From UHGV virus genome UHGV-0275551: a stretch of 64,000 nucleotides of DNA; one strand, 5' to 3'. Made by a program: the position numbers and the translations under genes. Origin of the DNA: a virus. This document shows, in pieces, positions 27,451-51,029 of this stretch (positions are counted from its first letter, which is position 1; each line of letters starts with the position of its first letter). The notes below the pieces were generated by a model. It worked only from the letters and a program-made list of their open reading frames with translations, made no database searches and was not told where the DNA came from.

Positions 27451-27942
27451 TTAGTTATGTCTTGCAAACTCACCATGAAGTTCTATTCGCTTTTTAATTA
27501 CAGCTTCTTTTGCTTCTTCTACCGTTTTAAATCTTCCACAAAAGTATTCTTTATGGTAAAGCATGACTCTTGCTTTGTAAAGACCTGTTTGTTTACAAAA
27601 ACTTACACCCTTCACACCAGTTTTATTATTCTTGTATATACCCCTATTCCTCTGATTTTGTGACTTTGTGCTAAGTCTTAAATTATCCAACTTATTATTA
27701 GATTTATCAAGGTCTATGTGGTCTATCTCATATCCACTTGGTATCTCACCTCCAGACATAATCCATGCAATATTATGTGCATAGTACCTCTTCTTATTTA
27801 TCTGGACTTGGATATAACCCTTCTTAGACCTTGTGCCAGCCACATTACCAGCAATAGCGGTACTGCAAAGGGTTACTCTCCAAATTAATAAACCTGTATC
27901 TGGTTCATATATTAGGTATCTTTCAAAATAACCCTTATTCAT
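27451..27942 (-). CDS. HNH homing endonuclease with C-terminal AP2-like DNA-binding domain
   Basis: EIDHIDLDKSNNKLDNLRL...QNQRN HNH motif; C-terminal GV..RV...GK..FKTVEEA; paralog at 50517-51029. Confidence 0.7.
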   Translation of the reverse strand: MNKGYFERYLIYEPDTGLLIWRVTLCSTAIAGNVAGTRSKKGYIQVQINKKRYYAHNIAWIMSGGEIPSGYEIDHIDLDKSNNKLDNLRLSTKSQNQRNRGIYKNNKTGVKGVSFCKQTGLYKARVMLYHKEYFCGRFKTVEEAKEAVIKKRIELHGEFARHN

Positions 27943-27950
27943 ACTGTTAC

Positions 27951-28832
27951 CTAATCAATGGTTGCTACAGTAACTTGACCATAATGTGTTAAGCCACGGT
28001 CTTTAGCTTCCCCTAAAGAGTTTGTAGTGTAGATGTGGTCAATGCCATTGTCAAGAAGGTTTTCAACATCTTTAGAGAAGATACCGTGTGTTACATAGAG
28101 TTCCACACGTTTTGCACCTGCTTCACGAAGATGTTTAGCTGCTTCTATGAAGGTTCGACCACCATCACAGATATCATCCAGAATCATGACGGTTTTATCT
28201 GTCAAATCAACATCATCAAGGATTCGCATACCAGTAATTTCACCAGTCTTAAGGTTGCGTACTTTAGACATTGTGATATATGGTTTATCCACCTCTTTAG
28301 CAGTCTCTGCAATCTTCTTAGCAGCACCTGCATCTGGGGCTACTAAGTAATCAATCAGTGGGTCATTTGCATAGTGGACTGCAATTTCCTTTTGAGGAAT
28401 ACTCTGGAAGCAGTTAAACAGGTTATCTGGTACATAGCTGTGAGGGTCAACTGCACAGACTGCACCAAATCTCATTGCATTTACCTGTTTAGCAAAAACC
28501 TTTAAAGCTGCTGCGTCGCCTTTAAACATGTGACGGTCATAACGTGCATTTGGTAAGTAGTAAAAGATGACAGTCTTTAAAGCATAATCATGAGGAATTA
28601 AATCATCAATTGCTTCTTTAGCAAGTGCCACAGCAAACAATGTATCCTTATCATAACCTTTTACAATCATAATCACATTGTTGATGGATGATGCTGCATA
28701 AGCAGTGAAATCAACAAACTCTGGCGAAAAGTGTCCACCAATCTCACCAGAAGGAAATTGGATGATGTTAAACTCTTCTTCATGAGTTCCTTTAGTTGGT
28801 GAATGAACTGTAACACGGATAGATGTTTTCAT
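27951..28832 (-). CDS. ribose-phosphate pyrophosphokinase family protein (PRS-like; possible Adps-type)
   Basis: PRPP-binding loop VMILDDICDGGRTF; track start is TTG 28847, ATG 28832 has SD GAGAGAGA. Confidence 0.8.
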   Translation of the reverse strand: MKTSIRVTVHSPTKGTHEEEFNIIQFPSGEIGGHFSPEFVDFTAYAASSINNVIMIVKGYDKDTLFAVALAKEAIDDLIPHDYALKTVIFYYLPNARYDRHMFKGDAAALKVFAKQVNAMRFGAVCAVDPHSYVPDNLFNCFQSIPQKEIAVHYANDPLIDYLVAPDAGAAKKIAETAKEVDKPYITMSKVRNLKTGEITGMRILDDVDLTDKTVMILDDICDGGRTFIEAAKHLREAGAKRVELYVTHGIFSKDVENLLDNGIDHIYTTNSLGEAKDRGLTHYGQVTVATID

Positions 28833-28843
28833 AGTTTTCTCTC

Positions 28844-29122
28844 TCAATCAAAAGTTACGTTTGTTACTGCCATTGCAGATTTGCATTTTGCAGGGTCTAC
28901 AACGTGATAAAGTACACTACAGTTACCTGTACTGTCTGGTACAGGTTTAACCCATTGTTGCTTGACAGTTGGTTCGCCTAAGTCTTTGTAAGAACCATCT
29001 GTAAAATTGTTTACCATCTCAAGTGCAATTGGTTCTGGAACATGACCACGTATCATGTACATCTCACAACCATTACCACCTTCACTCACTAATGGTAAAA
29101 TTTCCCACTTCTCTTTAGCCAT
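28844..29122 (-). CDS. hypothetical protein
   Basis: 92-aa ORF. Confidence 0.5.
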   Translation of the reverse strand: MAKEKWEILPLVSEGGNGCEMYMIRGHVPEPIALEMVNNFTDGSYKDLGEPTVKQQWVKPVPDSTGNCSVLYHVVDPAKCKSAMAVTNVTFD

Positions 29123-29630
29123 TGTAAGTTGCCCTATAAACTGTCTCGAACTTCAACAGGAGAGATATTGCCAAATCTGTATAGTTGTTGTCAAGCACCT
29201 CTGGCATATTATTTTTGATATATTTCTCTTGCTCTTCATAGGTCATCTTAGGTGTGCTTAGAAGGTTATCCCCTTGCTTCTGGTTATCAGCTTTAGTTTG
29301 GATAAACCAGTTCGCACAGTGATGTTCACCACCTTTTGTAACAGGTTTGTGGTGGCCTAGTGTAAATGTTTGCTTACCCGTATACCTGCAAAGATTGTTC
29401 AGTGTTGCAATGGTGTTCTTCACAACACACCATTCATACAGGTTATCTATTGTGTAGTGTGGGTAATAACGGACAAGTGCTCTTTCACGGAAGTTATCAC
29501 GATTCCAAAGAACCATGTGATTCGAGTTAGAAGGGTCGTATTGGTGGGAGTCAATGAACTCTTGACGTTCCTCAAAGCTGAGTCTTAGAACTGACATTGC
29601 AGCAGAACGTTTCAGATTTGACAGGTACAT
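29115..29630 (-). CDS. putative HNH-family nuclease
   Basis: LGHHKPVTKGGEHHCANWFIQTKADNQ resembles an HNH core. Confidence 0.4.
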   Translation of the reverse strand: MYLSNLKRSAAMSVLRLSFEERQEFIDSHQYDPSNSNHMVLWNRDNFRERALVRYYPHYTIDNLYEWCVVKNTIATLNNLCRYTGKQTFTLGHHKPVTKGGEHHCANWFIQTKADNQKQGDNLLSTPKMTYEEQEKYIKNNMPEVLDNNYTDLAISLLLKFETVYRATYNG

Positions 29631-29640
29631 ACTATCTCCA

Positions 29641-29670
29641 AAATAAAAAGGGAACCTTTACAGTTCCCTT
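29641..29670 (-). terminator. rho-independent terminator
   Basis: Minus-strand AGGGAAC-uguaaag-GUUCCCU followed by UUUUUAUUUU. Confidence 0.65.
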
Positions 29671-29681
29671 ATAGTATCTGC

Positions 29682-30002
29682 TTACTGAGCTACTTTCAAG
29701 ATTCTTGTGAATGGAATTTCACTTTCTTCCATTAACTCTTTAGTTTCTTTGGTAACTTTCACAAAGTTATCTAGGCAGATAATCTTCTTATCTTTCTTAC
29801 TATAGGTTAATTTAACCTTTTCAATATCTTTCTCAGAGCTTTTCTCTTCATTGAAGAGTTTTACAGCCTCTTTGAATGGGAGATATGAGCCATCATTATC
29901 ACTAATGAATCCTGTACCACAATAGTAGGAGTTATGCTATCTAGCCATAAACTGGCACAGTAAGAAAATCTGTAATTTACGAGTGTTATAAACTTTGCTC
30001 AT
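29682..30002 (-). pseudogene. small ORF (about 106 codons) interrupted by an in-frame TAG at 29937-29939
   Basis: ATG at 30002, 2 nt after the upstream stop, SD AGAAGG; 21 codons, TAG, then 85 stop-free codons in the same frame ending at 29682 just before a terminator. Confidence 0.3.
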
Positions 30003-30004
30003 GA

Positions 30005-30271
30005 CTATTTAGCCTTCTTATTACGTTTACGGTTACGAGCTTTCTTAGCTGCTCGTTTAATAGCTGCTGCACCAGACGGACGGTGGGCTTGTTTCTTACC
30101 ACCTTTGCCACGGCCTACATAGATGTAAGGCTGCTGTTCAATTTGGCTTGTAAGAACCTGTGCAACCGCTGAAGCATCTACACCGACCTGCTTTCCAGTC
30201 ATAGAAACAATTGCTGCTGCTTTTGCCAGTGCCTTCAAGAATCCAGCTTTCATATTACCTAAAATTCCCAT
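30005..30271 (-). CDS. small basic protein (Lys/Arg-rich C-terminus)
   Basis: 88-aa ORF, SD GAGAGAGA. Confidence 0.45.
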   Translation of the reverse strand: MGILGNMKAGFLKALAKAAAIVSMTGKQVGVDASAVAQVLTSQIEQQPYIYVGRGKGGKKQAHRPSGAAAIKRAAKKARNRKRNKKAK

Positions 30272-30367
30272 TTTTAGTCTCTCTCATTAAAGTTTAATAC
30301 AGAACTTATGAAGTTCTTCTTCAGTGATACCAATTGGAGTTATACCTTAGTCCATTTGCCAGAATAA

Positions 30368-30853
30368 TCACTCTGCTCTCCACTGACAATCACCTTGCCA
30401 CCCATACTCTTTTCTCCAGAGGTTTTGGTTATCAGAACCACGATATGGTTTAACTGTTGGTTTAGATGAATCATACTTACCATCAATCACCACGTCAACA
30501 TATTTCATCACATCAAGGTGAATTTTTTCATGTAACTGAAAACCTGTCCAGAGCCAGATAGATTTTTCTGGGTAAACGGTTTTAATACGTTTGCATATGT
30601 TGGTAACCTCTTGAATGTTTCTATCATCCAGAGGTTCTCCACCAAGTATTGACAGCCCACTGATGGCATTATCATCCATTAACTTAATGATGCCATAAAG
30701 GTTTGCATAAGTGAACTCTTTACCAGCATTAAACTTCCAAGATTCCTTATTAAAGCAACCTTCACAGTGATGCTTACAACCAGCTACGAAGAGGCTTACA
30801 CGAACCCCTTCACCATTAGCTGTGTCAAATGGTCGAATCTCCATGTAATTCAT
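30368..30853 (-). CDS. nrdG: anaerobic ribonucleotide reductase activating protein (radical SAM)
   Basis: CKHHCEGC (CxxxCxxC) radical-SAM motif; size about 160 aa; near nrdD. Confidence 0.85.
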   Translation of the reverse strand: MNYMEIRPFDTANGEGVRVSLFVAGCKHHCEGCFNKESWKFNAGKEFTYANLYGIIKLMDDNAISGLSILGGEPLDDRNIQEVTNICKRIKTVYPEKSIWLWTGFQLHEKIHLDVMKYVDVVIDGKYDSSKPTVKPYRGSDNQNLWRKEYGWQGDCQWRAE

Positions 30854-30862
30854 CTAGTTACC

Positions 30863-31162
30863 TCACCAATACATATAAGTGTTCTTAGCGGCTTTCTTTG
30901 GAGACTTGCTATCAATATCAAAATCTTCATCTAAGAAGGATGTCTTAGAAAGCTGCCTTATTTGTGTTCTTGTAAGACGTTTAGTGGCCTTCTTAATCTC
31001 TCTACAAGGCTGGCTTGTGAAGTCGTAAGAGCCACCTTTTCTGGACATCATATCAGAATGGAAGTAGACATCTGAAGCATTTTCTCTGTTACGTACCTCA
31101 TTTCTCCACTCATAGAGTCCATGAACGTTCTTTAAACCTTTTCTTCGAATTGTTTTACTCAT
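30863..31162 (-). CDS. hypothetical protein
   Basis: 99-aa ORF. Confidence 0.5.
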   Translation of the reverse strand: MSKTIRRKGLKNVHGLYEWRNEVRNRENASDVYFHSDMMSRKGGSYDFTSQPCREIKKATKRLTRTQIRQLSKTSFLDEDFDIDSKSPKKAAKNTYMYW

Positions 31163-31554
31163 TCAAACACCACCTGACAAGGAACCTGTTTAGTAATAAA
31201 TTCTTCACAGTGTTCTTTAATGAAGTTTTGTAATGGCACACAGTCTTGTGCGCAAGTCATTAGCATAATGTACTCTGGATTCATGATATTTTCAAGACTG
31301 TAGAAGACAACATCACCAGATAGTTCGTGACCATCTTCTTCAGACCAAGTTCCAGTGACTACAGCTAATTTGTCAAGCAATTCATTAGGCAATGCTACAC
31401 CATCTTCTACAGAATCACTTAGAACATTGTCGCCGATATACAATGTGAAGACCGTGTGGAATGTTGAGTATCTTACATGATTCTTTTCACAAGAGCCACA
31501 CTCTGAGGCATAATCTTTAATCCACTCTAACTGTTTTTGGCTCAACTTAATCAT
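31159..31554 (-). CDS. hypothetical protein
   Basis: 131-aa ORF. Confidence 0.5.
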   Translation of the reverse strand: MIKLSQKQLEWIKDYASECGSCEKNHVRYSTFHTVFTLYIGDNVLSDSVEDGVALPNELLDKLAVVTGTWSEEDGHELSGDVVFYSLENIMNPEYIMLMTCAQDCVPLQNFIKEHCEEFITKQVPCQVVFE

Positions 31555-31751
31555 AATTTCACCTTAGTTGGTAATGCACTGAATGCTATGACTAAACCTA
31601 AAAATGGTTTGAAGCATGACCATAAATCCATCTGACCATGATATGAGAAACTCCATTGTGGGTCTGAAAAACCCCATACCATAACACTAACCCCAAAGAA
31701 GAAGACTAGAATATGGAGTATGTATATCAACGCTTTTGATATCTTAAACAT
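31551..31751 (-). CDS. small membrane protein
   Basis: 66 aa, hydrophobic. Confidence 0.4.
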   Translation of the reverse strand: MFKISKALIYILHILVFFFGVSVMVWGFSDPQWSFSYHGQMDLWSCFKPFLGLVIAFSALPTKVKL

Positions 31752-31915
31752 TTTAACTTACCTTTCAATTCACAATAAGAAAGTCCTAAAAAGAACCCTA
31801 GTAAGACAGAACCTATGAACAACCCAATAATACTCTCTGCCATATCTAACATCCAAATAAAAAGGTGATGTAAGTCTATCAAGACTCACACCACCATGTC
31901 AAGTTTTACATAAGG

Positions 31916-32473
31916 TTATTTTTTCTTACAATTGTCAAAATGATATCGAGTCATGTTACCAGCACCACCAGTCATACCACAATGAGGGCAAGTTTTCTTT
32001 TTCTTTGGCTTTTTTCCGGCTTCTGACATCTTCTTCCTTGTTTCTATAGACCTTTTACAACCTTTTGATTTTGTATTGCCTATTTGAGATTCTCCTAATC
32101 GTCTTCGATGTTCTTCAGTGAAAACCCTACCTTTATTCACAATAGATAAAGCTTTCGAGTTCAAAGCTCTTACCTTTTCATAGTCTCTGGATGATATTTT
32201 CCTATCTAGGCCATCATGAGCTAACCTGTTCCATGCAAACCATAACTTATGATTGTTTGGATACATCTTAACCAGTAATTTATGAGCTATATAATGCTCT
32301 CTAGGTGTAAGCAAAGCAATATTATCTCCACTAATTTTATCGCCACCTAGACATACCGGTATGATATGGTGTCTTTCATAACCCTTACCTTGACATTTGT
32401 AGTATGTAAGAGGCACACCCCTTTCAGAATGTGCCTTCTTAATAATTGCATTATATATTAGTTCGTAATTCAT
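31916..32473 (-). CDS. HNH homing endonuclease with NUMOD-like basic repeats
   Basis: HHIIPVCLGGDKISGDNIALLTPREH HNH core; track start 32524 overlaps nrdD, ATG at 32473 lies just after the nrdD stop. Confidence 0.7.
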   Translation of the reverse strand: MNYELIYNAIIKKAHSERGVPLTYYKCQGKGYERHHIIPVCLGGDKISGDNIALLTPREHYIAHKLLVKMYPNNHKLWFAWNRLAHDGLDRKISSRDYEKVRALNSKALSIVNKGRVFTEEHRRRLGESQIGNTKSKGCKRSIETRKKMSEAGKKPKKKKTCPHCGMTGGAGNMTRYHFDNCKKK

Positions 32474-32480
32474 TTGTATG

Positions 32481-34625
32481 CTACATAGAAACCCTATCCT
32501 TAATTTCTGCCATCTTAGCGTCATTCATTCGAGACTGACCTTTAATTTTTGTGAATGACAAGTACCCGCACACCCTGTTAATCACAGAGATATCATGTGA
32601 GTGACAAACTTCACATTCTTCAACATCAGCCTTTGGCCTGTTACCACAATGTTCACAGATTGCTAAGTCAAAGTTAAGTCCCTGATAGAAACCTTTCAAC
32701 ATACCTCTTGTAATACAACTTTTAAGTGCTGTTAAGTTTTCTGGGTTAGCTACTCTTACATACTGGATTCTACCGCCTCTACAGATATGGAAGAATGGCT
32801 CTTCTAAGTCCTGCTTCTCAAATGGTGAGATGTCTGCTGCAACATTCATATGGAAACTATTTGTAAAGTATTCCTTATCGGAAACACCTTTGATAACCCC
32901 AAACATATCTCTGAACTGTTTTAGCTGAGTCCCACATAGTGATTCTGCTGGAGTACCATAGACGGCATATAAGAAGCCATCTTCATTTTTAAACTCTTCG
33001 GTTTTCATGTTAATGTATGCCAGAACATCATATGCAAAACTATAGCTTCCAACTTCATGAAGTCGTTTACCTTCAGCAAGAACAGACAACTCATCAAGCG
33101 CAGTAACACCAAAAGAAGCTGTGAAGGACTTCACAATATCCCAACCAACCTTGTCAGTAGGTTTCTTAGTTCCTTTGTACAGACCACCTTGTGTGAACGC
33201 AAGAGGGTTAGAACTTGCTGGCATATTAGCAATCATTTCGTAGCGTTTCTTGTGGAAGCTGCGAATCATCTCTAGGTACTTATCAAGCTCTTTCCAGAAA
33301 TCTAAACCATTCTCTTTAGAATACTGGTAAATCATTGGTAAGTTCAAAGATACAGCACCAATGTTAGCACGACCAACGTAGAACTCTTCCCCATCCTCGT
33401 TAAGATATGGAGATAAGAAGGCTCTACAACCCATCGGCGAGATTACCTTGCCAGAACGCTCAAAAGCTTCTGCTACAGCACCATGACCAGATACACTTAA
33501 GAAATCTGGATACATCGCTTTAGAGCAACACTCTATAGCTTTACTGTACAGGTGGCCTTGACAGATATTCTCATTATGTCTCTTCTGGTCATAAATATAA
33601 ACCAGTTTAGGAAATACAACAGGTTTCTTGCTCTTACCTTGTCCATTCATACGAACATCTAGGAGAGTACTTGCAATCATATATTGCAGTCGGTTATCTT
33701 CATTAGACATATCTGAGTCAAGTAACCCGAATGTCAAAGTTGTAAATGCAAAATCCCCACGGCTACAAGGTACGGTATTTAGTTTCATTTCAAGTGACTG
33801 GAAACCTTGAGTTAGTTCAATCTGTAGCTGCTCCATGACATAATTATGGTAATGTTCTTTAGGAATACCATAAGATGCTGCTTTCTCAGCATGATAGCGT
33901 AGAGACTTCTTAGCATACGGTACAAGTACCTTATCAATCTCTGCTAAAGTAAAGCCACCAAATTGCTGTGCAGTTGCTGAAAGAACTACGTCACCAATAA
34001 CCTGTAAGGCCGACAGCACAGACTTTGGTTCACAATATTCGATGCCAGACATTTCAAAGCCACCTTTCAGGACTTTACCAATGTCAAACAGGCAACAGTT
34101 GATACCACCAAAGATTAGGTCTCTTAAATCATGGATATAGATAAACCCTTTTTCAATGGCTTCAAGTTCCTCTGGTGTTAAATGGTACTGTTTAAAGATT
34201 TCTTTAGTCAGATAACCACGAATAATTGAACCTTTTGTAGAAATTAAACTGCTGTCAAAGTTAGCATTCTCTCTGTCACCTAAGAAGAGTGTATCTTTGG
34301 TCTTCTGGTAGAGTTCATCCCAATTTTGAGCAACTTCTTTACGGTAATTTCTATATGTTGAGTAAGACTCATAAATCTCGTGATTAACTTCTGCCAAAGC
34401 ACCTTCAACAATACTGTGAATATCATTTACCGAGATAAGCAAATTATTCTGCTTAGCGGACTTTACCAGAATCCTCATAAATGCTGACTCAAGAGCTTGA
34501 GTAACATCTGGTGGAAGCTCTTTATAACCAACCCTATTAGCTGACTTTGTGACTGCTGCTAAAACTTTTTTGATATCAGGTTCTTCGAGTGAGCCATTCT
34601 TTTTAATAATCTGTACTTTGTTCAT
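32481..34625 (-). CDS. nrdD: anaerobic ribonucleoside-triphosphate reductase
   Basis: 714 aa; C-terminal Cys cluster and glycyl-radical motif RVCGYL; adjacent nrdG. Confidence 0.85.
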   Translation of the reverse strand: MNKVQIIKKNGSLEEPDIKKVLAAVTKSANRVGYKELPPDVTQALESAFMRILVKSAKQNNLLISVNDIHSIVEGALAEVNHEIYESYSTYRNYRKEVAQNWDELYQKTKDTLFLGDRENANFDSSLISTKGSIIRGYLTKEIFKQYHLTPEELEAIEKGFIYIHDLRDLIFGGINCCLFDIGKVLKGGFEMSGIEYCEPKSVLSALQVIGDVVLSATAQQFGGFTLAEIDKVLVPYAKKSLRYHAEKAASYGIPKEHYHNYVMEQLQIELTQGFQSLEMKLNTVPCSRGDFAFTTLTFGLLDSDMSNEDNRLQYMIASTLLDVRMNGQGKSKKPVVFPKLVYIYDQKRHNENICQGHLYSKAIECCSKAMYPDFLSVSGHGAVAEAFERSGKVISPMGCRAFLSPYLNEDGEEFYVGRANIGAVSLNLPMIYQYSKENGLDFWKELDKYLEMIRSFHKKRYEMIANMPASSNPLAFTQGGLYKGTKKPTDKVGWDIVKSFTASFGVTALDELSVLAEGKRLHEVGSYSFAYDVLAYINMKTEEFKNEDGFLYAVYGTPAESLCGTQLKQFRDMFGVIKGVSDKEYFTNSFHMNVAADISPFEKQDLEEPFFHICRGGRIQYVRVANPENLTALKSCITRGMLKGFYQGLNFDLAICEHCGNRPKADVEECEVCHSHDISVINRVCGYLSFTKIKGQSRMNDAKMAEIKDRVSM

Positions 34626-34641
34626 TATTGCCCCTTTACAT

Positions 34642-34672
34642 GCTAAAAAGGTCTCCGAAGAGACCCTTTCAT
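34642..34672. terminator. bidirectional-type intrinsic terminator hairpin
   Basis: AAAGGTCTC-cgaa-GAGACCCTTT, T-run on the minus side. Confidence 0.6.
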
Positions 34673-34673
34673 T

Positions 34674-34880
34674 TTAAATCTTTTTAGAAAACTTAGAAAC
34701 GAGTTTTCTCAGTTTTTCAGTGATGCCTAACTGTATCTCTAATATTTCAAAGATAACCCATAGTAACATGGCTCCAAACAATGAACCTTGTTCAAAATCA
34801 GTAAATAGGTTAACAACAAGCATACCAATCACAATGGCTGGTGCATCAACAACCAGACCTTCCCAAAGGCGTTTAAGCAT
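34674..34880 (-). CDS. small two-TM membrane protein
   Basis: 68 aa, two hydrophobic helices. Confidence 0.45.
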   Translation of the reverse strand: MLKRLWEGLVVDAPAIVIGMLVVNLFTDFEQGSLFGAMLLWVIFEILEIQLGITEKLRKLVSKFSKKI

Positions 34881-35115
34881 TATTCACCTCTGCCATAAAA
34901 TTCTGTAGCGTTCCAACAGGTTTTGGGTTTTGTCCATCAGTTTTCATGATGAATGGCATCTGACGAACTGGCATCTGTGCAATATCCATCAGGTCTGATA
35001 GTTCATAGTCCTGCCCTAACATTCTCACAACATGGTCAATACCACGAGCTTTTGCAAAATTCTTTGCAGTCTCACACTGAGGGCATCCAGTTTTGGAGTA
35101 AATTACATAAGTCAT
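34873..35115 (-). CDS. glutaredoxin / NrdH-like redoxin
   Basis: CPQC active-site motif near N-terminus; about 80 aa; adjacent to nrdB. Confidence 0.7.
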   Translation of the reverse strand: MTYVIYSKTGCPQCETAKNFAKARGIDHVVRMLGQDYELSDLMDIAQMPVRQMPFIMKTDGQNPKPVGTLQNFMAEVNNA

Positions 35116-38775: not shown

Positions 38776-38778
38776 AGT

Positions 38779-40390: not shown

Positions 40391-40411
40391 TTTATTCCCT
40401 CTCAATAGTTA

Positions 40412-41939: not shown

Positions 41940-41944
41940 TATGG

Positions 41945-41990
41945 CTCTCCATATGAAAAAGCCCCATACTAAGTACAGGGCTTTAAAGTA
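41945..41990 (-). terminator. intrinsic terminator after the SSB-like gene
   Basis: Minus-strand AGCCC-uguacuuaguaug-GGGCU followed by UUUUCAUAUGG. Confidence 0.5.
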
Positions 41991-42001
41991 ACTTTTAGAG
42001 A

Positions 42002-42859: not shown

Positions 42860-42931
42860 TATTTAAACCTCTATCTCAATTTATGAAGAGTACCAATTCT
42901 AGTTTGTTGATACTCTATTGTCAAATACTAA

Positions 42932-43081
42932 TTACTGGAAGTTGTGCTTATCTTTAGAAGCTGCTTTACGTGCAGTTTTTCCAGTTCTTACACGTTTTTC
43001 TTCATAGTATTTTGCTGGTTTTCCAGCAGTGGCTTTTAAGGAATCCCCAAAAACTTTTTCAAATGCTTTAGAGTGTTTCAT
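42932..43081 (-). CDS. small Lys-rich protein (49 aa, below the track cutoff)
   Basis: ATG overlaps the upstream stop (ATGA); SD GGAG. Confidence 0.3.
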   Translation of the reverse strand: MKHSKAFEKVFGDSLKATAGKPAKYYEEKRVRTGKTARKAASKDKHNFQ

Positions 43082-43371
43082 GATATTCTCCGATATACTT
43101 GATATTCAAACACATTTTCTTTCATTATAAACAGCCAACCAATATTATGCTGAGGTATAGTAATAGTGACTGTAATAATACTGTGATGGAAGTTTTCTTC
43201 TACCTCAACGCCTCCATCACATTTCATGTAGAGCATTCTATAGAACCTATCAATCTTTGTCAAACACTCTTCCTGAAATTTATTTAAACTTTTTTCTTCA
43301 AAGAAGGGTGTGAACCCCTCTCTTTTATAACTATCACTCAGTTTCGAACGGGCAGTCATCTGCATCCTCAC
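43078..43371 (-). CDS. hypothetical protein
   Basis: 97-aa ORF overlapping the 3' end of the primase-helicase gene. Confidence 0.35.
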   Translation of the reverse strand: MRMQMTARSKLSDSYKREGFTPFFEEKSLNKFQEECLTKIDRFYRMLYMKCDGGVEVEENFHHSIITVTITIPQHNIGWLFIMKENVFEYQVYRRIS

Positions 43372-45319
43372 TTAATACAGGTGGAATCGTTGAGCTTTGA
43401 CGCTGCTCTTCAGTATAGACTTCACCAGTCTCACGGTCAAACACTTCATCCTCATAATGTGGCAAAGAGTCATCGTAATGGTCTTCAGCTTCACCAATAC
43501 CAAACTGCTGGCGAATGTTTTCTGCTGCACCATCAATGTCAACTCCACAACCAGATGCTTTGATGAGACGTCCTGTATCTGGATTGTACCAAGTATGACC
43601 AGCAATACCAGTTGACTTACCATGCCGACGGCACTTAGTTAACTTGATTTTTGTCAAGTTTTTCTTAACAGGGTCTGGGTCAACCTTGTTACGCATTAAC
43701 AGAATGTTGTTCATAGAAATCTGGAAATACGCACCAGAGCCTTTGATATCCTCTTCAGAGATATCTCCACCTTCAGAGTTGGCTTTCTGACCCCCTGCGC
43801 TCTTACGAACGTGACAGACGTTCACCTGTGCATACTGGTAGCGTTTGCAACGGCGCAATAGTTCAGACAAAACTTCCTCTTCATCCGTATCTGAACGTGA
43901 CAGAGCCAACGTAATAGGGTCAAGAATAATAATCTTACAGTCTAAACTGTTAACAAGATAGTCAACAAATTCCAGCAGGTTGTCTTGGTCAATCGCCCCT
44001 TGATGGTCTACGATGTGGATACGACGACCTTTAGATAGTTCTGCGTGTGCTTCCTTTAATTCATCCCAATCACGTTCGTCATAAGGAATCTCAGAAATCT
44101 GTTTGCTCAGGTGAATTGCACAGAGCATCTCCATCAACTCTTCATAGGTATCTTCTACCGGAATTACACCAATATTGTAATCGGTTTCCTTCCAAGCTGA
44201 ATAAATCATCTCACGAGTGTAAGCTGATTTACCTACTGAAGATGGTGCTGCCAGAGTTGTAATCTCTCCTAAACCATAACCACCGTAAGTTAGTCTGTTC
44301 AAATCCCCGAAAGATTCTGGGAAAGGAATCAAAGGAATCTGACCACGATTCTTCATTGCCTCAAAACCATCTGCAAAGTTCTTGATACCAGCAGGGCAAT
44401 AACGAGGTGCGTTGTAGATACGCTGCTTAAATCCTTCCAGAACTGTATCTTTCTCTTTATAGAACTTTGTCCACCATTCGTTAAGGTCTTTTACACCTTC
44501 TGGATACTGGAATAAACGAACCTTCTCAATAGGTAGGATACCAGCAGCCTCTTTGGTAGCTTTAGCACCTGCTTCATCGTTATCAAAGCACAAGTAAATT
44601 TCATCAAATGATGTAATGTACTGATAGTTATCTTTGATAGACTTAATGTTTGCACCTGACGGAACAGATACGTGACAGTAATTCTTACGACGAGACTTAT
44701 CTTTAATCGCCAAAGAAGTCATGTAGATTGCTGTCGCACATTCCATCTCACCTTCCCAGATGAATAGACGGTTACCACCTTCTGGAGCAATCCATGAGCC
44801 GAACATTGCCAGTTCACCTTTAATGTCTCCAACACCACCAGAAAAGTCTTTTAGCTTACCACGTAGGTGCTCTTTTGGATGGTCTTCTGGGTAACGGTGA
44901 CGAACACGGTAGCCAACATGTTCTAGCTTACCATCTTCATTACGTTTGTAAGTTGGATAGAAGTGCGCATCAATTTCACCGTCACTGTCAATGTCAACCT
45001 TGATACCTAAGCGTTCAAGGACTTTTGCAGGAATCTTCCTGTCTTTCAAGTCCATTGCTTCTAGGTTTTCTTTTACATCGTCTAAATCCATTCCACGGAA
45101 AGTACGGTTTTTATTGTCTGAACCAGTAGAATAAGTGCTCACGATTTGTCCTTTATCAAAATCCCACTCTGGGAAACCTTTGTTACAACTAAAGCAAGTC
45201 ATCGAATAAGAATCATCGTCATGATGATAGATTGAACCAGCATCTGATGAACCACAACGTGGACATGCACAATGACCAATAAACTGACCAACCTCTTTCA
45301 ATTTACGACCTTTAGACAT
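43334..45319 (-). CDS. DNA primase/helicase (T7 gp4-like)
   Basis: N-terminal zinc ribbon CPRCGSSDAG...CFSCNKGF; C-terminal Walker A PSSVGKS; ATG 45319 with SD AAGAGG. Confidence 0.85.
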   Translation of the reverse strand: MSKGRKLKEVGQFIGHCACPRCGSSDAGSIYHHDDDSYSMTCFSCNKGFPEWDFDKGQIVSTYSTGSDNKNRTFRGMDLDDVKENLEAMDLKDRKIPAKVLERLGIKVDIDSDGEIDAHFYPTYKRNEDGKLEHVGYRVRHRYPEDHPKEHLRGKLKDFSGGVGDIKGELAMFGSWIAPEGGNRLFIWEGEMECATAIYMTSLAIKDKSRRKNYCHVSVPSGANIKSIKDNYQYITSFDEIYLCFDNDEAGAKATKEAAGILPIEKVRLFQYPEGVKDLNEWWTKFYKEKDTVLEGFKQRIYNAPRYCPAGIKNFADGFEAMKNRGQIPLIPFPESFGDLNRLTYGGYGLGEITTLAAPSSVGKSAYTREMIYSAWKETDYNIGVIPVEDTYEELMEMLCAIHLSKQISEIPYDERDWDELKEAHAELSKGRRIHIVDHQGAIDQDNLLEFVDYLVNSLDCKIIILDPITLALSRSDTDEEEVLSELLRRCKRYQYAQVNVCHVRKSAGGQKANSEGGDISEEDIKGSGAYFQISMNNILLMRNKVDPDPVKKNLTKIKLTKCRRHGKSTGIAGHTWYNPDTGRLIKASGCGVDIDGAAENIRQQFGIGEAEDHYDDSLPHYEDEVFDRETGEVYTEEQRQSSTIPPVLSEDADDCPFETE

Positions 45320-45512
45320 TAGCACCTCTTCGTTGTAGTTCTGCCTTCAATCCATTTTCAATCTTGTCCAGTTCATGAATTTCATCTGCAATCTCTTTCC
45401 TTCGTGATTCAACTCTCTTAAGACGTTCAATCATTACCTCATTGGAAAGAGATGAGAGTTCCACTAAACGATGGTCAATAACTTTAAAATTGTCTTTTAC
45501 TCTCATCTTCAT
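45312..45512 (-). CDS. hypothetical coiled-coil protein
   Basis: 66-aa ORF. Confidence 0.45.
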   Translation of the reverse strand: MKMRVKDNFKVIDHRLVELSSLSNEVMIERLKRVESRRKEIADEIHELDKIENGLKAELQRRGANV

Positions 45513-45520
45513 TCTCTCTT

Positions 45521-46264
45521 TTAAACTTTAATGATAGCTCTTAGCTTGTTCTCAAGGTCTGCAAGAGTACCATTATTATGAATAATGTCACGCTCATATT
45601 TTGTAGAAATCCCATTTTCTGAAACATGTGATGAAACTTTGTCCACATTGTCTCTTTTTACTTCAATAGTTTGGTGTGCAAATCTACTCAGCCATTCAGC
45701 TTCAGAGTCAAATCTTAAATCACTGATTAAGACAAAACCATATTGATTTCTAAGTGAGCACATTTCATGGAATCTAACCATTCTTTTTTCAAGGTCTTTA
45801 GACCAGAACTTGTCGCCCATTACTTTACGGACAACTTCAGTACCCCAAATCTGTTGAATTTGTCTTGATGAGAATTTATACTTTTTACTAAATCCCAGAC
45901 GTGTTAATAGGGTAGGTTTAGCAACCTTCTTAAGCTCCATGATTAATCGTCCGGTTAACTCTGACATAAGCTTGAAGTCCATATGGTAACGTTCATCTCT
46001 GAAGGTGAACTCCATAGCTTCCGTAACTTTAAACATCAGTTCAGGATATGATAAGTCAAAAACCTGTGGAGTCTCTTTAGTTTCACCGTACAGGTCATTC
46101 CAAGTCAAGTCAAATATCTTTGATGCAGATAGTTTAAGGTTGTCTGCAAAGGCCATTACTTCAACATTGTAGCCATACTCATCCTCTAAAATGTTCTTCA
46201 CAATAGAACATGAGGTGTCTTTTCCAGAACGTGCCTTTCCAGTAAAGGCGATAATATTACTCAT
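45521..46264 (-). CDS. deoxynucleoside monophosphate kinase-like P-loop protein
   Basis: N-terminal IIAFTGKARSGKDT resembles the T4 gp1 dNMP kinase P-loop. Confidence 0.6.
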   Translation of the reverse strand: MSNIIAFTGKARSGKDTSCSIVKNILEDEYGYNVEVMAFADNLKLSASKIFDLTWNDLYGETKETPQVFDLSYPELMFKVTEAMEFTFRDERYHMDFKLMSELTGRLIMELKKVAKPTLLTRLGFSKKYKFSSRQIQQIWGTEVVRKVMGDKFWSKDLEKRMVRFHEMCSLRNQYGFVLISDLRFDSEAEWLSRFAHQTIEVKRDNVDKVSSHVSENGISTKYERDIIHNNGTLADLENKLRAIIKV

Positions 46265-46281
46265 TTTATCTCCATTAATTA

Positions 46282-46310
46282 CTAAAAAGCCCCCAACTAA
46301 GGAGGCTTGT
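46282..46310 (-). terminator. rho-independent terminator
   Basis: Minus-strand AAGCCUCC-uuaguu-GGGGGCUU followed by UUUUAG. Confidence 0.5.
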
Positions 46311-46325
46311 AAGATTTATAAAGAC

Positions 46326-47126
46326 TTAGTGTAGTTGCTCAGCAGACTCTTTTTCAGCCATAGCTGAAAGTTGCTTCACAAAAGCATCACCGAAGTTAAT
46401 GCGTAGTTTCTCTTCAATGATGGAAGCACCAATGTTCACCAAAACATCATTGATTGCTTGCATACTGACTCCGCCAGTCATCTCTTCAATGAACTCAATA
46501 CTCACACCCATCATCTGTGAAAGTTGGATTAGTGCAACGATATTCATCATCGTAGATATAGCTGGAATCATCAGTGCAACTTTCACCTGAAGTGGTTCTA
46601 TATCAGCTACAGAGTCATTTTCAACAGCTTCTTCCAAAGAATCTTTAGTTTGCTGGATAATCTCTTTGATTCGTGGGTTTAATTCTTCGACGCCCCAATC
46701 AAGTTTTTCATATCGTGAAAGTTTCTCTTCCATGCGCTTCTCAAGAACAGCCATAACAGCACTCGTTGATGAGATAAGCGTATCAATAATGAAATCAGTG
46801 TCCTTAGTCAGCAACAGTTCCTTATCTTCATCTGACATTCTGATATAGTCATTCTTTTGCATTTCATAAAAAATGAACTCAGCAAGTGCATCAACACCAA
46901 CTGCAATAGATGCCAGAGCAAGTGTAGTGTCTGTCAACATCATATTAACCTGTTCTGCAAAAGCACCGTTATCAGACTTGTCTTTAGGTAGGTTATAGCT
47001 TGCAGGCATAAACTGTTCTGTGTAGTTATTACCACGAAGAATCATAGCCATGCTTTCTACGGCATTGATTAAAAATGCTTCGTCAATACCTTTTTCTTCA
47101 AGCATCTTTTCTACATCGATATTCAT
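46326..47126 (-). CDS. hypothetical protein
   Basis: 266-aa ORF. Confidence 0.6.
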   Translation of the reverse strand: MNIDVEKMLEEKGIDEAFLINAVESMAMILRGNNYTEQFMPASYNLPKDKSDNGAFAEQVNMMLTDTTLALASIAVGVDALAEFIFYEMQKNDYIRMSDEDKELLLTKDTDFIIDTLISSTSAVMAVLEKRMEEKLSRYEKLDWGVEELNPRIKEIIQQTKDSLEEAVENDSVADIEPLQVKVALMIPAISTMMNIVALIQLSQMMGVSIEFIEEMTGGVSMQAINDVLVNIGASIIEEKLRINFGDAFVKQLSAMAEKESAEQLH

Positions 47127-47806: not shown

Positions 47807-50506
47807 ATGGAAAACGTAGATTTTAAAAACTTACATTTAGTTGGTGATACAGAAACTGATGGTTTACTCCTTGAGTTCACTAAAGTTCACGTAATGGCTT
47901 TCGCAGATTATAAATCTGACGATGAAGAGCCACCTGTATGGGTCTTTACAGATGAGCCTATCCTCGGTCACAAGTACACTAAGTACATTAAGGGTGGTTT
48001 ACGTGAAGGTGTTGAGTTTGCGTTAAAGGCAAAACGACTTTGTATCCATAACGGCCTCGGTTATGACTGGTGGGTCTTCAATCACATTGCACCGGATTTA
48101 TGGAACTTTGATAATCCAAAATGTAAGCCGTGGAGTAATTTCTTTCAGGATTCTCTTATCCAGTCTCGTGTTCAGTGGATGGATAGACCAACTCCAAAGG
48201 GTTATAAAGGTGCTCATGGTTTGGCTGCATGGGGTGCTCGTGTCGGTGTTCGTAAGCCAGAGATTGAGCATTGGGGTGTGTGGAATGCAGAAATCTTCAC
48301 TCGTGTTGTGGAAGATATCCGTATTAACGCCAAAACTAAACGCGCACTGGATAATGAGTATCTCAAGCTAAAGAAGTGTGGCATAGACACTTATGAAACC
48401 TATATGCGAGCTAAAGAAACATCTTTCTGGATGAGTCAACAAGCTATCAATGGTTGGAAAGCTGATAAAGAGCTTATGGAGTTCCATGTAAAGGAACTTG
48501 ACAAGTTGACTAATGAGCTTGCTTCAGAAGTTGAACCACATCTTCCTCCAACTATTAAGACCAAAGGTAAAGTCACTGGAGAAGAGTTTGCAAAAGCTTG
48601 GAATGAGTATGTTGAAGCATTTGGTCACGCAGATGGACTGAAGAGAATTACCAAGTACCCTAAGACAAAGTATCGTCAGCAGGTACGTAACGGTGAGATG
48701 CAGACATATGAAATCAAGCCATTTGGTAAGCCAACTACAAAGATTTTTAACATTGAAAAGAGAAATTGCTATACACCAACCAACTCTGTAACTGGTGAAG
48801 AGTACAAGGAGGGTTTTGTAGCAATGAAGGATGCTCGTGCAATTTGCAATGAGTTGAATGCAAAGATTGGTAAGAAATGCAAAGACTGGAAGCCAGTAAA
48901 AACAGTTAAAACTGTGAAGTACTATAACAGTCATGTTGTTAACCACTTTGAGCTTGAGTCAAGTCGCTACACAGGATTGATTGATGCACCATATACACCA
49001 ATTGAGTTTGAAGTTTCTCGTATGACTCAGGTAGCAGTTGTTAAAGACTACTTGAAATCAGTTGGTTGGATTCCAGATGACTGGAACTACAAGAAAGATT
49101 CAGACGGTCGCCCTGTCAAAGTTTGTCGTTTCAAAGACAACAAAAAGATGATTACAAAGCATCCTAAGTGGCAGGAGATGGTTGAACGGTGTGGGTTGAG
49201 TTATGTTGAACACGAAGGTGTCCAGTACATCGAACATAACTGGTCTGTGAAGAAGTACACGGATTTGCTTGAACCTTGCTTAATCCGTACTTCACCAAAA
49301 CTTACTGAATCTTCTTATGATACGATTGAAGGTGAGCTTGGACAGAAGATTGCTAAGTACTACACTTTGATGCACAGACGAAGAACTATTGAGAATTCAA
49401 AGGATGATGAAAAAGGTTGGTTGAACCAGATTCGTCCAGATGGTCGCCTTAGTGCTGGTGCAATGGTATTTGGTACTTCAACTGGACGTATGACACAATA
49501 TGGTATTGTAAACGTACCGTCTGGTGCTGCTGTCTATGGGGAACCAATGAGGGCAGTGTGGATTTGTGAAGAAGGTACTAATGTTGTCTCTGTAGACATG
49601 AACTCAGCCCAGCTAGTTCTCCTTTGTAACTTTATGGGTGACAAAGACTTCACCAAAGCGGTAACGCAAGGTAAAGAAGAGATTGAGTTTATTCGTCAAG
49701 AAGATGGACGCTATTACTGCAAACATTTTGATGAGTACCTAAACCCAGAGATTGATAAGTACCTTCGCTATGACTCTGAGAATGACCTGTACGTTGTCTA
49801 TTCAGGGACTGATGCACATACACTGAACAGTATTTACTTTAGCTTGAATGATGAGCAGGATATCTTGACTTGTCGAGCTACTCAGGATGAGAATCTTCTT
49901 CATGAGATTAGCAAAGGTCGTAAGAAAGCTAAGAATGGTATCTATGCACTGCTGTTCGGTGCAGGTGATGAGAAGTTTGCTAAGACAATTAAAGCTGCAA
50001 CTACTCAGGAAGGTGCACTGACTAAACAGACTTACTTTATTCGTTTGCCTAAAATTAAGAAGTTGCTAGATGACTTGGAAGCTGACTACAAAGCGACTAA
50101 AAAGGCACTTGAAGAGGTTTTTGGTAAGACCGCTGCAATCTCTAAAGGGGGATTTGTAAAGGTTGCTGGAGCTTGGTTGTGGTGTAAATCTCCACATAAG
50201 TTATTGAATTATTTGCTTATGGGTTCGGAGGCTCAGATTCAAAATGAGGCAATTAACCTTGCTTGTAGAAGAGCATGTGAAGAAGGGTTGACAAAATTAA
50301 ATGGACGAAAACCAGCAATCGGTGCTAGGCTTTTGCTGGCATACCACGATGAAAACAGTTGGGAATGCCCAGAGAGTATGACTCAAGAAGTTAAAACCAT
50401 AACTGACTGGATGTATGGTCAGGCATCTAAGAATTTAGGTTTGAAGAGTGAGACGCTTGTAACTGGCACAGGTAAGGTTGGTAAGAGCTGGTTGGAAGTG
50501 CATTGA
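47807..50506 (+). CDS. DNA polymerase, family A, with 3'-5' exonuclease domain
   Basis: Exo I motif VGDTETDGL; polymerase motifs KNGIYALLFGAG and LAYHDENSWECP; ATG 47807 with SD GAGGGAG. Confidence 0.9.
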   Translation: MENVDFKNLHLVGDTETDGLLLEFTKVHVMAFADYKSDDEEPPVWVFTDEPILGHKYTKYIKGGLREGVEFALKAKRLCIHNGLGYDWWVFNHIAPDLWNFDNPKCKPWSNFFQDSLIQSRVQWMDRPTPKGYKGAHGLAAWGARVGVRKPEIEHWGVWNAEIFTRVVEDIRINAKTKRALDNEYLKLKKCGIDTYETYMRAKETSFWMSQQAINGWKADKELMEFHVKELDKLTNELASEVEPHLPPTIKTKGKVTGEEFAKAWNEYVEAFGHADGLKRITKYPKTKYRQQVRNGEMQTYEIKPFGKPTTKIFNIEKRNCYTPTNSVTGEEYKEGFVAMKDARAICNELNAKIGKKCKDWKPVKTVKTVKYYNSHVVNHFELESSRYTGLIDAPYTPIEFEVSRMTQVAVVKDYLKSVGWIPDDWNYKKDSDGRPVKVCRFKDNKKMITKHPKWQEMVERCGLSYVEHEGVQYIEHNWSVKKYTDLLEPCLIRTSPKLTESSYDTIEGELGQKIAKYYTLMHRRRTIENSKDDEKGWLNQIRPDGRLSAGAMVFGTSTGRMTQYGIVNVPSGAAVYGEPMRAVWICEEGTNVVSVDMNSAQLVLLCNFMGDKDFTKAVTQGKEEIEFIRQEDGRYYCKHFDEYLNPEIDKYLRYDSENDLYVVYSGTDAHTLNSIYFSLNDEQDILTCRATQDENLLHEISKGRKKAKNGIYALLFGAGDEKFAKTIKAATTQEGALTKQTYFIRLPKIKKLLDDLEADYKATKKALEEVFGKTAAISKGGFVKVAGAWLWCKSPHKLLNYLLMGSEAQIQNEAINLACRRACEEGLTKLNGRKPAIGARLLLAYHDENSWECPESMTQEVKTITDWMYGQASKNLGLKSETLVTGTGKVGKSWLEVH

Positions 50507-50516
50507 TGGTATTGAA

Positions 50517-51029
50517 ATGATTACAGAAATTCGCTTAAAGGAGCTTTTAGAGTATGACCCCGATGCAGGGGTCTTTACTTGGAAGTTTAGAGAAGGTAAT
50601 GCAAACTTTAACTCTAGATTTGGAGGTAAGAGGGCTGGAAACTACAGAACAAATACTGATGGACACAAGTCAGTTCAGTTGTTGATTGATGGAAGGAGTT
50701 ACCAAGCAAATCGTTTAGTTATCTTGTATGTGGATGGATATCTGCCTGATAAAACCTTACAGGTTGACCATAAGAATGGGGACGGTTGGGACAATAGGTA
50801 CTTGAATTTAAGGGTTTGTACAGCTTCACAAAACGCTTGCAATCGGTCAAGAAAGTCCCCATCTGGGTTGCCAAAAGGTGTACAGAAGATAAATAAAAGG
50901 TTTCGAGCAATGATACGTTTACAAGGCAAAAACTATCATCTTGGTATGTTTGACACGCCTGAAGAAGCCCATAAAGCTTACTGTGAAGCTGCTGTGAAAC
51001 TCCACGGAGAGTTTGCAAAACTAAGTTGA
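50517..51029 (+). CDS. HNH homing endonuclease with AP2-like domain
   Basis: VDHKNGDGWDNRYLNLR...SQN HNH core; C-terminus parallels 27451-27942. Confidence 0.65.
   Translation: MITEIRLKELLEYDPDAGVFTWKFREGNANFNSRFGGKRAGNYRTNTDGHKSVQLLIDGRSYQANRLVILYVDGYLPDKTLQVDHKNGDGWDNRYLNLRVCTASQNACNRSRKSPSGLPKGVQKINKRFRAMIRLQGKNYHLGMFDTPEEAHKAYCEAAVKLHGEFAKLS

Follow-up and report, generated by a model that had tools for sequence, protein, structure and literature searches.

A 64,000-nucleotide stretch of a virus genome (UHGV-0275551; hereafter the window) carries five endonuclease-like open reading frames (ORFs) among its metabolic and replication genes, and it raises the question of which of these genes are mobile and which simply belong to the phage. 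An earlier note had read all five as free-standing homing endonucleases placed at gene boundaries. The window derives from a Felixounavirus (Felix O1-like myovirus) with ~265 related public genomes at 90-96% identity, and these genomes, together with 28 IMG/VR loci (31 at the polymerase site), are the denominators of the frequencies given here. All five ORFs exist as described, and each lies between genes, none within another gene. An NCBIfam model was found for none of the five proteins, and no additional HNH or GIY-YIG gene emerged when all window ORFs were scanned by blastp and with a crude motif search. We consider it likely that three HNH homing endonuclease genes (HEGs) have recently homed with co-conversion of adjoining sequence, and that the other two, a GIY-YIG gene and a gene for a 171-aa protein, are non-mobile core genes (Table 1). 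The earlier reading is supported for the three genes that are sporadic and flanked by substitution patches, and is not supported for the two that are present in all 28 loci.

Table 1. Features of the window discussed in the text (positions of the whole stretch; function and mobility are predicted).
Feature	Position	Strand	Description
namat patch	27309-27435	-	First ~125 nt of namat; HEG1-linked substitutions
HEG1	27451-27942	-	Predicted free-standing HNH_3 + AP2-like HEG, between adps and namat, NARP1 operon
Core 171-aa gene	29115-29630	-	Remote HNH-like beta-beta-alpha motif (TLGHHKPVTKGGEHHCANWFIQTKADNQKQ); Bas63 gp77 ortholog
HEG3	31916-32473	-	Predicted free-standing MobE-like HNH + NUMOD3 HEG; starts 7 nt past nrdD stop
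nrdD patch	32493-32568	-	Last ~85 nt of nrdD, just past RVCGY glycyl-radical motif
Intron-less nrdD homing site	33428	-	Group I intron here in relatives
SegE-type GIY-YIG gene	40412-40909	-	165 aa, catalytic domain only; exonuclease stop overlapped by 11 nt
Empty HEG site	40914-40939	.	Between exonuclease and GIY-YIG gene; ~500-bp HNH gene in relatives
Intron-less DNA polymerase homing site	49947-49953	+	Group I intron here in relatives
Polymerase patch	50203-50515	+	Last ~310 nt of DNA polymerase gene, divergent
HEG5	50517-51029	+	Predicted free-standing HNH_3 + AP2-like HEG; starts 10 nt past DNA polymerase stop
HEG5 3' tail	50961-51029	+	TPEEAHKAYCEAAVKLHGEFAKLS; ~97% nt identity across otherwise divergent HEG alleles

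The three sporadic genes, HEG1, HEG3 and HEG5, behave alike. Each is found in 10-25% of relatives, where it forms an indel with precise boundaries, and the gene adjoining each carries a dense, one-sided patch of substitutions, 75-310 nt long. Their copies are full length, free of internal stops and intact in their catalytic motifs, with dN/dS values of 0.10-0.30, which are below neutral. Near-isogenic contigs that lack the HEGs are otherwise up to 100% identical to the window around the HEG sites; one of them, L002, lacks both HEG1 and HEG3 and was used as the empty-site reference. From these sequence patterns, we predict that HEG1, HEG3 and HEG5 are free-standing homing endonuclease genes of the HNH type that are active or were so until recently, and the one-sided patches would be the classic signature of co-conversion.

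HEG1 separates two genes of the NARP1 operon, the PRPP-synthetase-like adps and the NAMPT-like namat. Its product matches the Pfam HNH_3 family well above threshold (PF13392; 69.4 bits, cut-off 24.8, 2e-19) and aligns over its full length with phrog_99 (5e-68), while a PDB sequence search returned nothing useful. The gene is present in 6 of 28 loci as a precise indel of ~505 bp (27448 to 27953) and, at full length, in 62 of the ~265 related genomes. In 22 of these genomes HEG1 is 99-100% identical to the window copy, and the flanks are 93-96% identical; HEG1 and its patch are likewise 99-100% identical to those of L010 and L011, where the flanks range from 88 to 98%. At the empty site of L002, a 30-nt terminator-like hairpin stands in place of the gene. 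The namat patch has 30 mismatches to L002, compared with none from 26200 to 27299 and four from 27953 to 28900, and it changes the protein at seven positions (S2T, A19S, S20G, I22V, D27S, Q30E and L34F). When namat haplotypes were compared across the HEG1 junction with coding-only queries, all HEG1-bearing loci shared the patch haplotype and 14 of 17 HEG1-less loci had a different one (Fisher p = 0.002, a test that ignores phylogenetic non-independence). Patch and HEG are nevertheless separable, as L006, L008 and L015 lack HEG1 yet carry the HEG-type patch. We propose that the namat patch is a co-conversion tract and may be the target or immunity region of HEG1.

A similar picture emerges at nrdD, the stop codon of which adjoins HEG3; four small ORFs lie between HEG3 and nrdG. 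The earlier description of this protein as an HNH endonuclease with NUMOD-like repeats agrees with a NUMOD3 match (23.2 bits, Pfam cut-off 20.4), and there is also a weak match to the colicin/pyocin HNH DNases. Its motif, ERHHIIPVCLGG...DN...REH, aligns weakly (E = 0.003-0.005) to those of pyocin AP41 and colicin E9, and the protein matches phrog_655, 'homing endonuclease', at 3.5e-57. HEG3 is found in 6 of 28 loci, as a precise ~570-bp indel (31912 to 32482), and at full length in 52 of the ~265 related genomes; relative to L006 the gene is 99-100% identical and its flanks 91-95%. The adjacent nrdD patch differs from L002 at 22 positions, after which there is not one mismatch as far as 33600. 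Alleles with the HEG encode GYLSF where those without it encode GYLGW. The patch is common to all six HEG3-bearing sequences, and the other allele is present in 14 of 16 HEG3-less loci (Fisher p = 0.0004, again ignoring phylogenetic non-independence); the two remaining loci, L016 and L021, are HEG3-less yet have the HEG-type patch.

Downstream of the DNA polymerase gene, one insertion site hosts alternative HEGs in different relatives. The HEG5 product has an HNH_3 domain (45.4 bits, cut-off 24.8, 6e-12) and a full-length match to phrog_99 (7e-59). This allele is present in 4 of 31 loci and at full length in 28 public records among the ~265 related genomes. Across the in-clade loci, some HNH-AP2 allele occupies the site in 17 of 29 and the site is empty in 12 of 29; the alleles share 40-52% aa identity among themselves and represent at least four HEG lineages, and the HNH catalytic residues (DH...N...N) are retained in all HEG alleles compared. 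The polymerase patch differs from L059 at 18-29 positions in every 100 nt, compared with 0-7 upstream, and its haplotypes follow the occupancy state of the downstream site. The alternative HEGs end in an identical C-terminal tail of 23 aa, and the corresponding 3' segment of HEG5 is probably a downstream homology arm for allele replacement. Because even the best database match to HEG5 reaches only ~96% identity, this HEG may not have arrived recently.

The earlier note had grouped HEG1 and HEG5 as HNH-AP2 paralogs, and took the pair as a sign of recent spread. Both do belong to one family with HNH_3 above the cut-off; their AP2 (PF00847) scores, 20.9 bits for HEG1 (E = 4.6e-4) and 23.9 bits for HEG5 (E = 5e-5), fall under the cut-off of 33.3. 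However, the two proteins are only 30.9% identical over 162 aa, and they are distant members of the family, not recent copies of each other. Recent spread itself is well supported, by the near-identity of HEG1 in the 22 genomes with more divergent flanks and not by the pair.

How might these genes have moved? During co-infection, each HEG would cut the conserved gene of a HEG-less relative beside its own insertion site, with proposed cut regions at the 5' end of namat and at the 3' ends of nrdD and the DNA polymerase gene. Repair templated by the HEG-bearing genome would copy in the HEG with a short flanking stretch, and substitutions in that stretch would leave the HEG-bearing allele uncuttable. 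Here T4 MobE and the Seg endonucleases serve as the models from which we infer nuclease activity, cut position and immunity of the HEG-bearing allele. The gene conversion between co-infecting relatives that the earlier note envisaged would thus apply to the three sporadic HEGs, which have adjacent patches, and not to the two core genes. Alternatively, the sporadic HNH genes could be inactive remnants, with their pattern produced by ordinary recombination and deletion in place of homing. On this view the patches could represent long-standing allelic lineages that such recombination has reshuffled; patch and HEG are occasionally uncoupled, and mosaicism in the region extends beyond the HEGs, with cassettes of small ORFs that differ between relatives at 30124-30370, 30871-31153 and 51075-52326. 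In PHROG scans, the small ORFs of variable occurrence around the HEGs matched only families of unknown function. This explanation has difficulty with copies that are all full length, catalytically intact in their motifs and under constraint, with a like one-sided patch recurring at three independent HEGs amid otherwise identical flanks, and with HEG identity that exceeds flank identity. We therefore regard it as improbable and favor recent homing with co-conversion.

The GIY-YIG gene presents a different case. Its assignment as a GIY-YIG protein is secure (SegE_GIY-YIG, PF19835; 97.4 bits vs a cut-off of 25, 9.4e-28; residues 21-138). The match covers the catalytic core; a separate C-terminal DNA-binding domain was not found, with no other Pfam domain at E <= 10, and the structure model has a single terminal helix past the core, residues 107-147 being unreliable. 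The top Foldseek match of the model is the I-TevI catalytic domain, which is not significant (E = 1.2), and a PDB sequence search found nothing useful. The gene occupies the same site in 28 of 28 loci, spanning at least three genera and 75-98% nt identity, and 261 public records contain it at full length, compared with ~265 related genomes (~98%). Its dN/dS is 0.04, compared with 0.05 for the exonuclease, and 126 of 166 columns of the protein alignment are invariant. T4-like cyanophages widely carry homologs with 30-39% identity. Relatives label the gene 'GIY-YIG homing endonuclease' and also, mistakenly, 'NAD synthetase'. Its distribution and constraint suggest a fixed core gene, most likely serving the phage itself.

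The 171-aa protein was noted earlier as a putative HNH. The ORF is real, and its putative HNH character comes from remote similarity: there is no Pfam nuclease match even at E <= 10, the protein belongs to phrog_3500 (unknown function) and matches phrog_2214, 'HNH endonuclease', at 1.4e-6, a profile of its family, run against a library of 1.84 billion proteins, reaches a true HNH_5 protein (E = 6e-5), and hhalign gives a probability of only 37%. The AF2 model places strands at residues 89-93 and 108-112 and a helix at 113-121, and the HNH-like motif is invariant in the alignment. A PDB sequence search gave nothing useful, as its protein A matches reflect low-complexity helical repeats. The gene lies at the same site in 28 of 28 loci across at least three genera, over the same 75-98% range of nt identity, and in 241-251 of ~265 public genomes (91-95%), with a dN/dS of 0.12. 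Here too the evidence points to a fixed core gene, not a mobile HEG, that most likely serves the phage.

An ortholog in phage Bas63 (JohannRWettstein), bas63_0077, bears on that role. The two products are 92% identical at the aa level, and the genes occupy the same place, two genes upstream of adps/namat. Bas63 gp77 was reported in a preprint to counter retron Ec67, and gene 77 was described there as carrying a GIY-YIG domain (PMC11482910). Unlike that description, the window protein has no GIY-YIG signal and remote HNH-like similarity only. The GIY-YIG gene of the window was considered as the 'GIY-YIG gp77' of the preprint (PhageMaP) and rejected on numbering, because g79, g80, g84 and g85 fit the locus tags, under which bas63_0057 is the GIY-YIG gene. 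The actual GIY-YIG gene of Felix O1-like phages is gp57, to which the window protein is 100% identical.

One could instead envision that all five genes are selfish homing endonucleases, two of which have swept to fixation. Fixation alone is compatible with a selfish nuclease at 100% frequency, and both universal genes sit at gene boundaries in a nucleotide-metabolism and replication cluster. The annotation of the GIY-YIG relatives, a Pfam family named after T4 SegE and the invariance of the HNH-like motif in the 171-aa protein lean the same way. However, a fixed HEG that lacks empty targets should decay, and these two genes, found in every locus and diverging in step with the genome, have dN/dS values as low as or below those of the exonuclease and NrdG; purifying selection on them is as strong as on their neighbors. 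The GIY-YIG protein lacks a DNA-binding domain beyond its catalytic core, and the ortholog of the 171-aa protein has a host-defense phenotype in Bas63. The comparison of insertion sites that the earlier note had suggested separates the genes in the same way: HEG1, HEG3 and HEG5 are sporadic, and the other two stand at identical sites in all 28 loci, which is one half of what the note itself had set against homing. We give little credence to selfishness of all five, and retain the division into three mobile genes and two core genes. A further possibility, to which we give somewhat less than even odds, is that the two universal genes are domesticated HEG relatives and the three HEGs are drivers of allele shuffling. 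The universal genes may have counter-defense, host-DNA or recombination functions; an example of counter-defense may be the destruction of retron msDNA that has been proposed for Bas63 gp77. The alleles shuffled by HEGs may include the anti-defense gene namat, the glycyl-radical region of NrdD and the polymerase C-terminus.

Free-standing HEGs in Felix O1-like phages are already known, and the genes described here are annotated in public relatives. Six HNH HEG homologs were described in Felix O1 (PMC3185647), and orthologs of HEG1 and HEG5 carry HNH (homing) endonuclease annotations in phages that include Felix O1, VpaE1 and Mushroom; the finding of HEGs itself therefore adds little. HNH+AP2 proteins are a known HEG family of phages, cyanobacteria and ciliates that includes the ICP1 'IPA-HNH' (PMC10448857, citing earlier work). 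HEG1 and HEG5 fit this family in their N-terminal HNH_3 domain and C-terminal AP2-like tail, the latter below the Pfam gathering score, and in being free-standing and adjoining DNA polymerase or other important genes. The T4 gene mobC is located between nrdG and nrdD, and marker exclusion has been explained by co-conversion (PMC2988022). HEG3 resembles T4 MobE (nrdA/nrdB) and mobC as an HNH endonuclease placed intergenically beside a ribonucleotide reductase gene; it has the HNH + NUMOD3 composition, a 'MobE-like' annotation in relatives and a start a few nt past the upstream stop, and it shares with them a sporadic distribution and, in the neighboring nrd gene, a patch that resembles co-conversion. 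Unlike MobE, HEG3 belongs to an Ounavirinae lineage and would target the 3' end of nrdD, where T4's target is nrdB; its similarity to T4-like HEGs is confined to short stretches.

In T4-like phages, SegH and Hef replace mobC and mobE at the same site (cited in PMC2988022). The site downstream of the polymerase is comparable, being empty or filled by divergent HNH-AP2 alleles, and differs in that the alternatives are all of one family and share the identical tail. Like T4 SegE, the GIY-YIG protein has the SegE_GIY-YIG domain and the motifs GFVY...YYIGKK. In contrast to the T4 Seg HEGs, it is short, has no recognizable DNA-binding domain and is universal and constrained in Ounavirinae; its short form resembles one conserved in T4-like cyanophages, and it behaves as a housekeeping gene. 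Two 'homing endonuclease' labels in the genus, those of the GIY-YIG gene and the 171-aa gene, are probably wrong. The public near-isogenic pairs with and without each HEG bound candidate cleavage or immunity sites to ~100 nt, and HEG tracts should be masked in whole-genome phylogenies of Felixounavirus. HEG1 lies inside the NARP1 NAD+-reconstitution anti-defense operon with the start of namat apparently co-converted, and HEG traffic may for this reason spread anti-defense variants.

The window also contains homing sites that are unoccupied. The empty site beside the GIY-YIG gene holds an HNH gene in 13 of 28 relatives, and ORF105 of VpaE1, at this position, is annotated 'HNH endonuclease'. In relatives, nrdD introns come in two sizes, 316 bp with no ORF and ~742 bp when they contain a HEG; that of L008 matches Rfam RF00028 at 53.6 bits, and the annotation of Bas63 nrdD joins two pieces around the HEG bas63_0068. 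DNA polymerase introns measure 274 bp or, where they contain an ORF, ~790-810 bp (RF00028 at 62.1 bits in L087), and in the intron-bearing genomes the polymerase gene 3' of the intron site is only 76-82% identical.

The window matches 265 phage records across 27000-47000 (20 kb) at 80-97% identity. Nearly all are Felixounavirus, the Felix O1-like myoviruses of Escherichia, Salmonella, Shigella and Citrobacter, and the gene order is that of the RefSeq VpaE1 annotation: NAMPT-like gene, HNH, PRPP-synthetase-like gene, small ORFs, nrdG, small ORFs, MobE-like homing endonuclease gene (HEG), nrdD, nrdB, nrdA, 'NAD synthetase', exonuclease, primase/helicase, DNA polymerase and ligase. The earlier note described five homing-type endonucleases in this phage. 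All five open reading frames are present as located there, and the observation is real yet ordinary for three (HEG1, HEG3 and HEG5) and mis-assigned for the other two. We searched the DNA of each gene against a phage collection, counting full-length matches, and compared 28-31 IMG/VR loci taken around three flanking genes.

The five candidate endonuclease genes, their domains and their matches in the phage collection
Gene	Coordinates (strand)	Domains	Full-length matches
HEG1	27451-27942 (-)	Pfam HNH_3 well over threshold; AP2 match under threshold	62; 22 records at ≥99% identity
Putative HNH gene	29115-29630 (-)		241; core gene
HEG3	31916-32473 (-)	NUMOD3 over threshold; colicin/pyocin-type HNH motif	52; sporadic
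GIY-YIG gene	40412-40909 (-)	Strong SegE_GIY-YIG domain	261; core gene
HEG5	50517-51029 (+)	Pfam HNH_3 well over threshold; AP2 match under threshold	28; ends alone matched in ~130 more records

Insertion sites differ among relatives for three of the genes. HEG1 and HEG3 are clean indels of ~505 bp and ~570 bp, the latter immediately past the nrdD stop codon, and each is present in 6/28 IMG/VR loci; the HEG5 allele of the window occurs in 4/31. The putative HNH and GIY-YIG genes are not mobile; they are found in 28/28 loci, even in genomes only 75-80% identical. The sporadic genes are also bordered by patches, dense substitution clusters in the adjoining conserved gene. One related locus (L002) lacks HEG1 and HEG3 and is near-isogenic with the window, with 0 mismatches over 26200-27299 and 32600-33500. 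Next to its empty HEG1 site, 30 positions differ within 27309-27435, which covers the opening ~125 nt of namat, the NAMPT-like gene; next to its empty HEG3 site, 22 differ within the final ~85 nt of nrdD (32493-32568). Identity resumes beyond both patches. HEG1 and its patch are 99-100% identical in L010 and VpaE1, where flanks are 88-98% identical, and HEG3 is 99-100% identical in L006, where flanks are 91-95%. Beside HEG5, the polymerase gene differs from L059 at 18-29 positions per 100 nt over its final ~310 nt, against 0-7 upstream.

All HEG-bearing genomes have a common patch haplotype, and most HEG-less genomes have an alternative one (Fisher p = 0.002 for HEG1/namat and 0.0004 for HEG3/nrdD, with loci treated as independent of phylogeny). 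The haplotypes differ in the NAMPT-like protein by S2T, A19S, S20G, I22V, D27S, Q30E and L34F, and in NrdD, directly past the glycyl-radical motif, by GYLSF with HEG3 versus GYLGW without it. In T4, one-sided patches arise by co-conversion from a nearby cleavage site (PMC2988022); by analogy, we infer that those beside HEG1, HEG3 and HEG5 reflect co-conversion from nearby nuclease cut sites. A few HEG-less loci carry the HEG-associated patch, which fits HEG loss or resistant alleles. Immediately downstream of HEG3, at 31890-31915, the window reads ...CCTTATGTAAAACTTGAC, repeating TATGTAA, the nrdD terminus of HEG-less genomes (ATGTAAAACTTGAC). This repeat may be what is left of the nrdD terminus that existed before the insertion.

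Such genes are familiar in this group. Felix O1 was described with six HNH homing endonuclease copies (PMC3185647), comparative papers give two to three per genome for relatives, HNH+AP2 is a recognised HEG family (PMC10448857), and annotated database genes match HEG1, HEG3 and HEG5 at 96-100% identity. The earlier note read recent spread from an HNH-AP2 paralog pair, but the HEG1 and HEG5 proteins are only 31% identical and are therefore old family members rather than products of recent duplication.

HEG1 lies between the orthologs of Bas63 genes 80 (Namat; 25653-27434) and 79 (Adps; 27951-28847) in about a quarter of genomes. Adps and Namat form the NARP1 operon, which rebuilds NAD+ against NAD+-depleting defences, so HEG1 splits an anti-defence operon, and its linked patch alters the Namat N-terminus. 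Public records label the Namat gene nicotinamide phosphoribosyltransferase and the Adps gene ribose-phosphate pyrophosphokinase.

The site downstream of the DNA polymerase holds an HNH-AP2 gene in 17/29 in-clade loci and is empty in 12/29. Its occupants represent at least four lineages (40-52% protein identity), yet all end in a common 23-residue C-terminus, TPEEAHKAYCEAA[I/V]KLHGEFAKLS, whose ~70 coding nt are ~97% identical. The polymerase 3' end and this conserved tail probably serve as homology arms for mutual allele replacement, much as SegH/Hef replace mobC/mobE in T4-like phages.

The GIY-YIG gene encodes a 165-aa protein, a bare catalytic domain, 100% identical to Bas63 gp57. Its dN/dS is 0.04 (exonuclease, 0.05; nrdG, 0.07), 126/166 alignment columns are invariant, and disrupted copies number 0. 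We think this nuclease more likely to serve housekeeping or counter-defence than to be selfish. Homologs of 30-39% identity occur in T4-like cyanophages, in hundreds of genomes, and mostly bear the label 'NAD synthetase'. The short GIY-YIG family to which the gene belongs (phrog_447) is so labelled across hundreds of phage records, T4-like cyanophages included, apparently through a mis-annotation that has propagated. Between this gene and the exonuclease gene, at 40914-40939, 13/28 relatives have an additional HNH gene of ~500 bp (VpaE1 ORF105) that is absent from the window, whose exonuclease has 346 aa versus 344 aa.

The putative HNH protein gave no Pfam nuclease match, even at E ≤ 10. Its top PHROG is an unknown-function family, with a secondary 'HNH endonuclease' match at 1.4e-6. 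The family is tiny (18 clusters among 1.84 billion representatives), and dN/dS, at 0.12, is similar to that of neighbouring genes. Its invariant motif, TLGHHKPVTKGGEHHCxNWFIQTxxDNQKQ, has a predicted strand-strand-helix fold and aligns with an HNH_5 protein across its HNH core; the motif has Gln at the final metal-ligand position of this putative HNH-like core. The protein is 92% identical to bas63_0077 (L089 21949-22464). In a preprint (PMC11482910), Bas63 lacking gene 77 is reported to plate 10-fold less well on retron Ec67 cells, a defect relieved by complementation; the gene is described there as an Ec67 countermeasure with a GIY-YIG domain. We found no GIY-YIG signal in the window ortholog. 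The preprint's gene numbers otherwise agree with Bas63 locus tags, by which gene 77 is the HNH-like ortholog and the real GIY-YIG gene is bas63_0057; the domain call or gene label needs checking.

Group I introns interrupt nrdD and the DNA polymerase gene in many relatives, at window positions 33428 and 49947-49953, respectively; the window has no intron at either site. Short forms (316 and 274 bp, respectively) reach the Rfam RF00028 threshold (L008 1734-2058; L087 7111-7394), and a HEG ORF lies within the long forms (~742 and ~790-810 bp). In intron-bearing genomes, polymerase sequence 3' of 49947-49953 has only 76-82% identity to that of the window. For Felix O1 itself, no introns were reported in 2010 (PMC3185647). 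Small-ORF cassettes of 'unknown function' PHROG families vary among relatives, by exchange or by presence and absence, at 25604-25610, 30124-30370, 30871-31153, 51075-51287, 51493-51930 and 52140-52326, independently of HEGs.

A 1.6-kb region (9413-10990) has no ORF of ≥45 aa and no tRNA, and is bordered by terminator-like hairpins. It is dense in CTTAACA(A/G)-type repeats spaced 10-11 bp apart (e.g. 10083-10182), with inverted copies at 10610-10650, and coincides with the cumulative GC skew peak and a switch in gene orientation; the corresponding position in Bas63 is a gap in the annotation. This region may be a replication origin or regulatory array.
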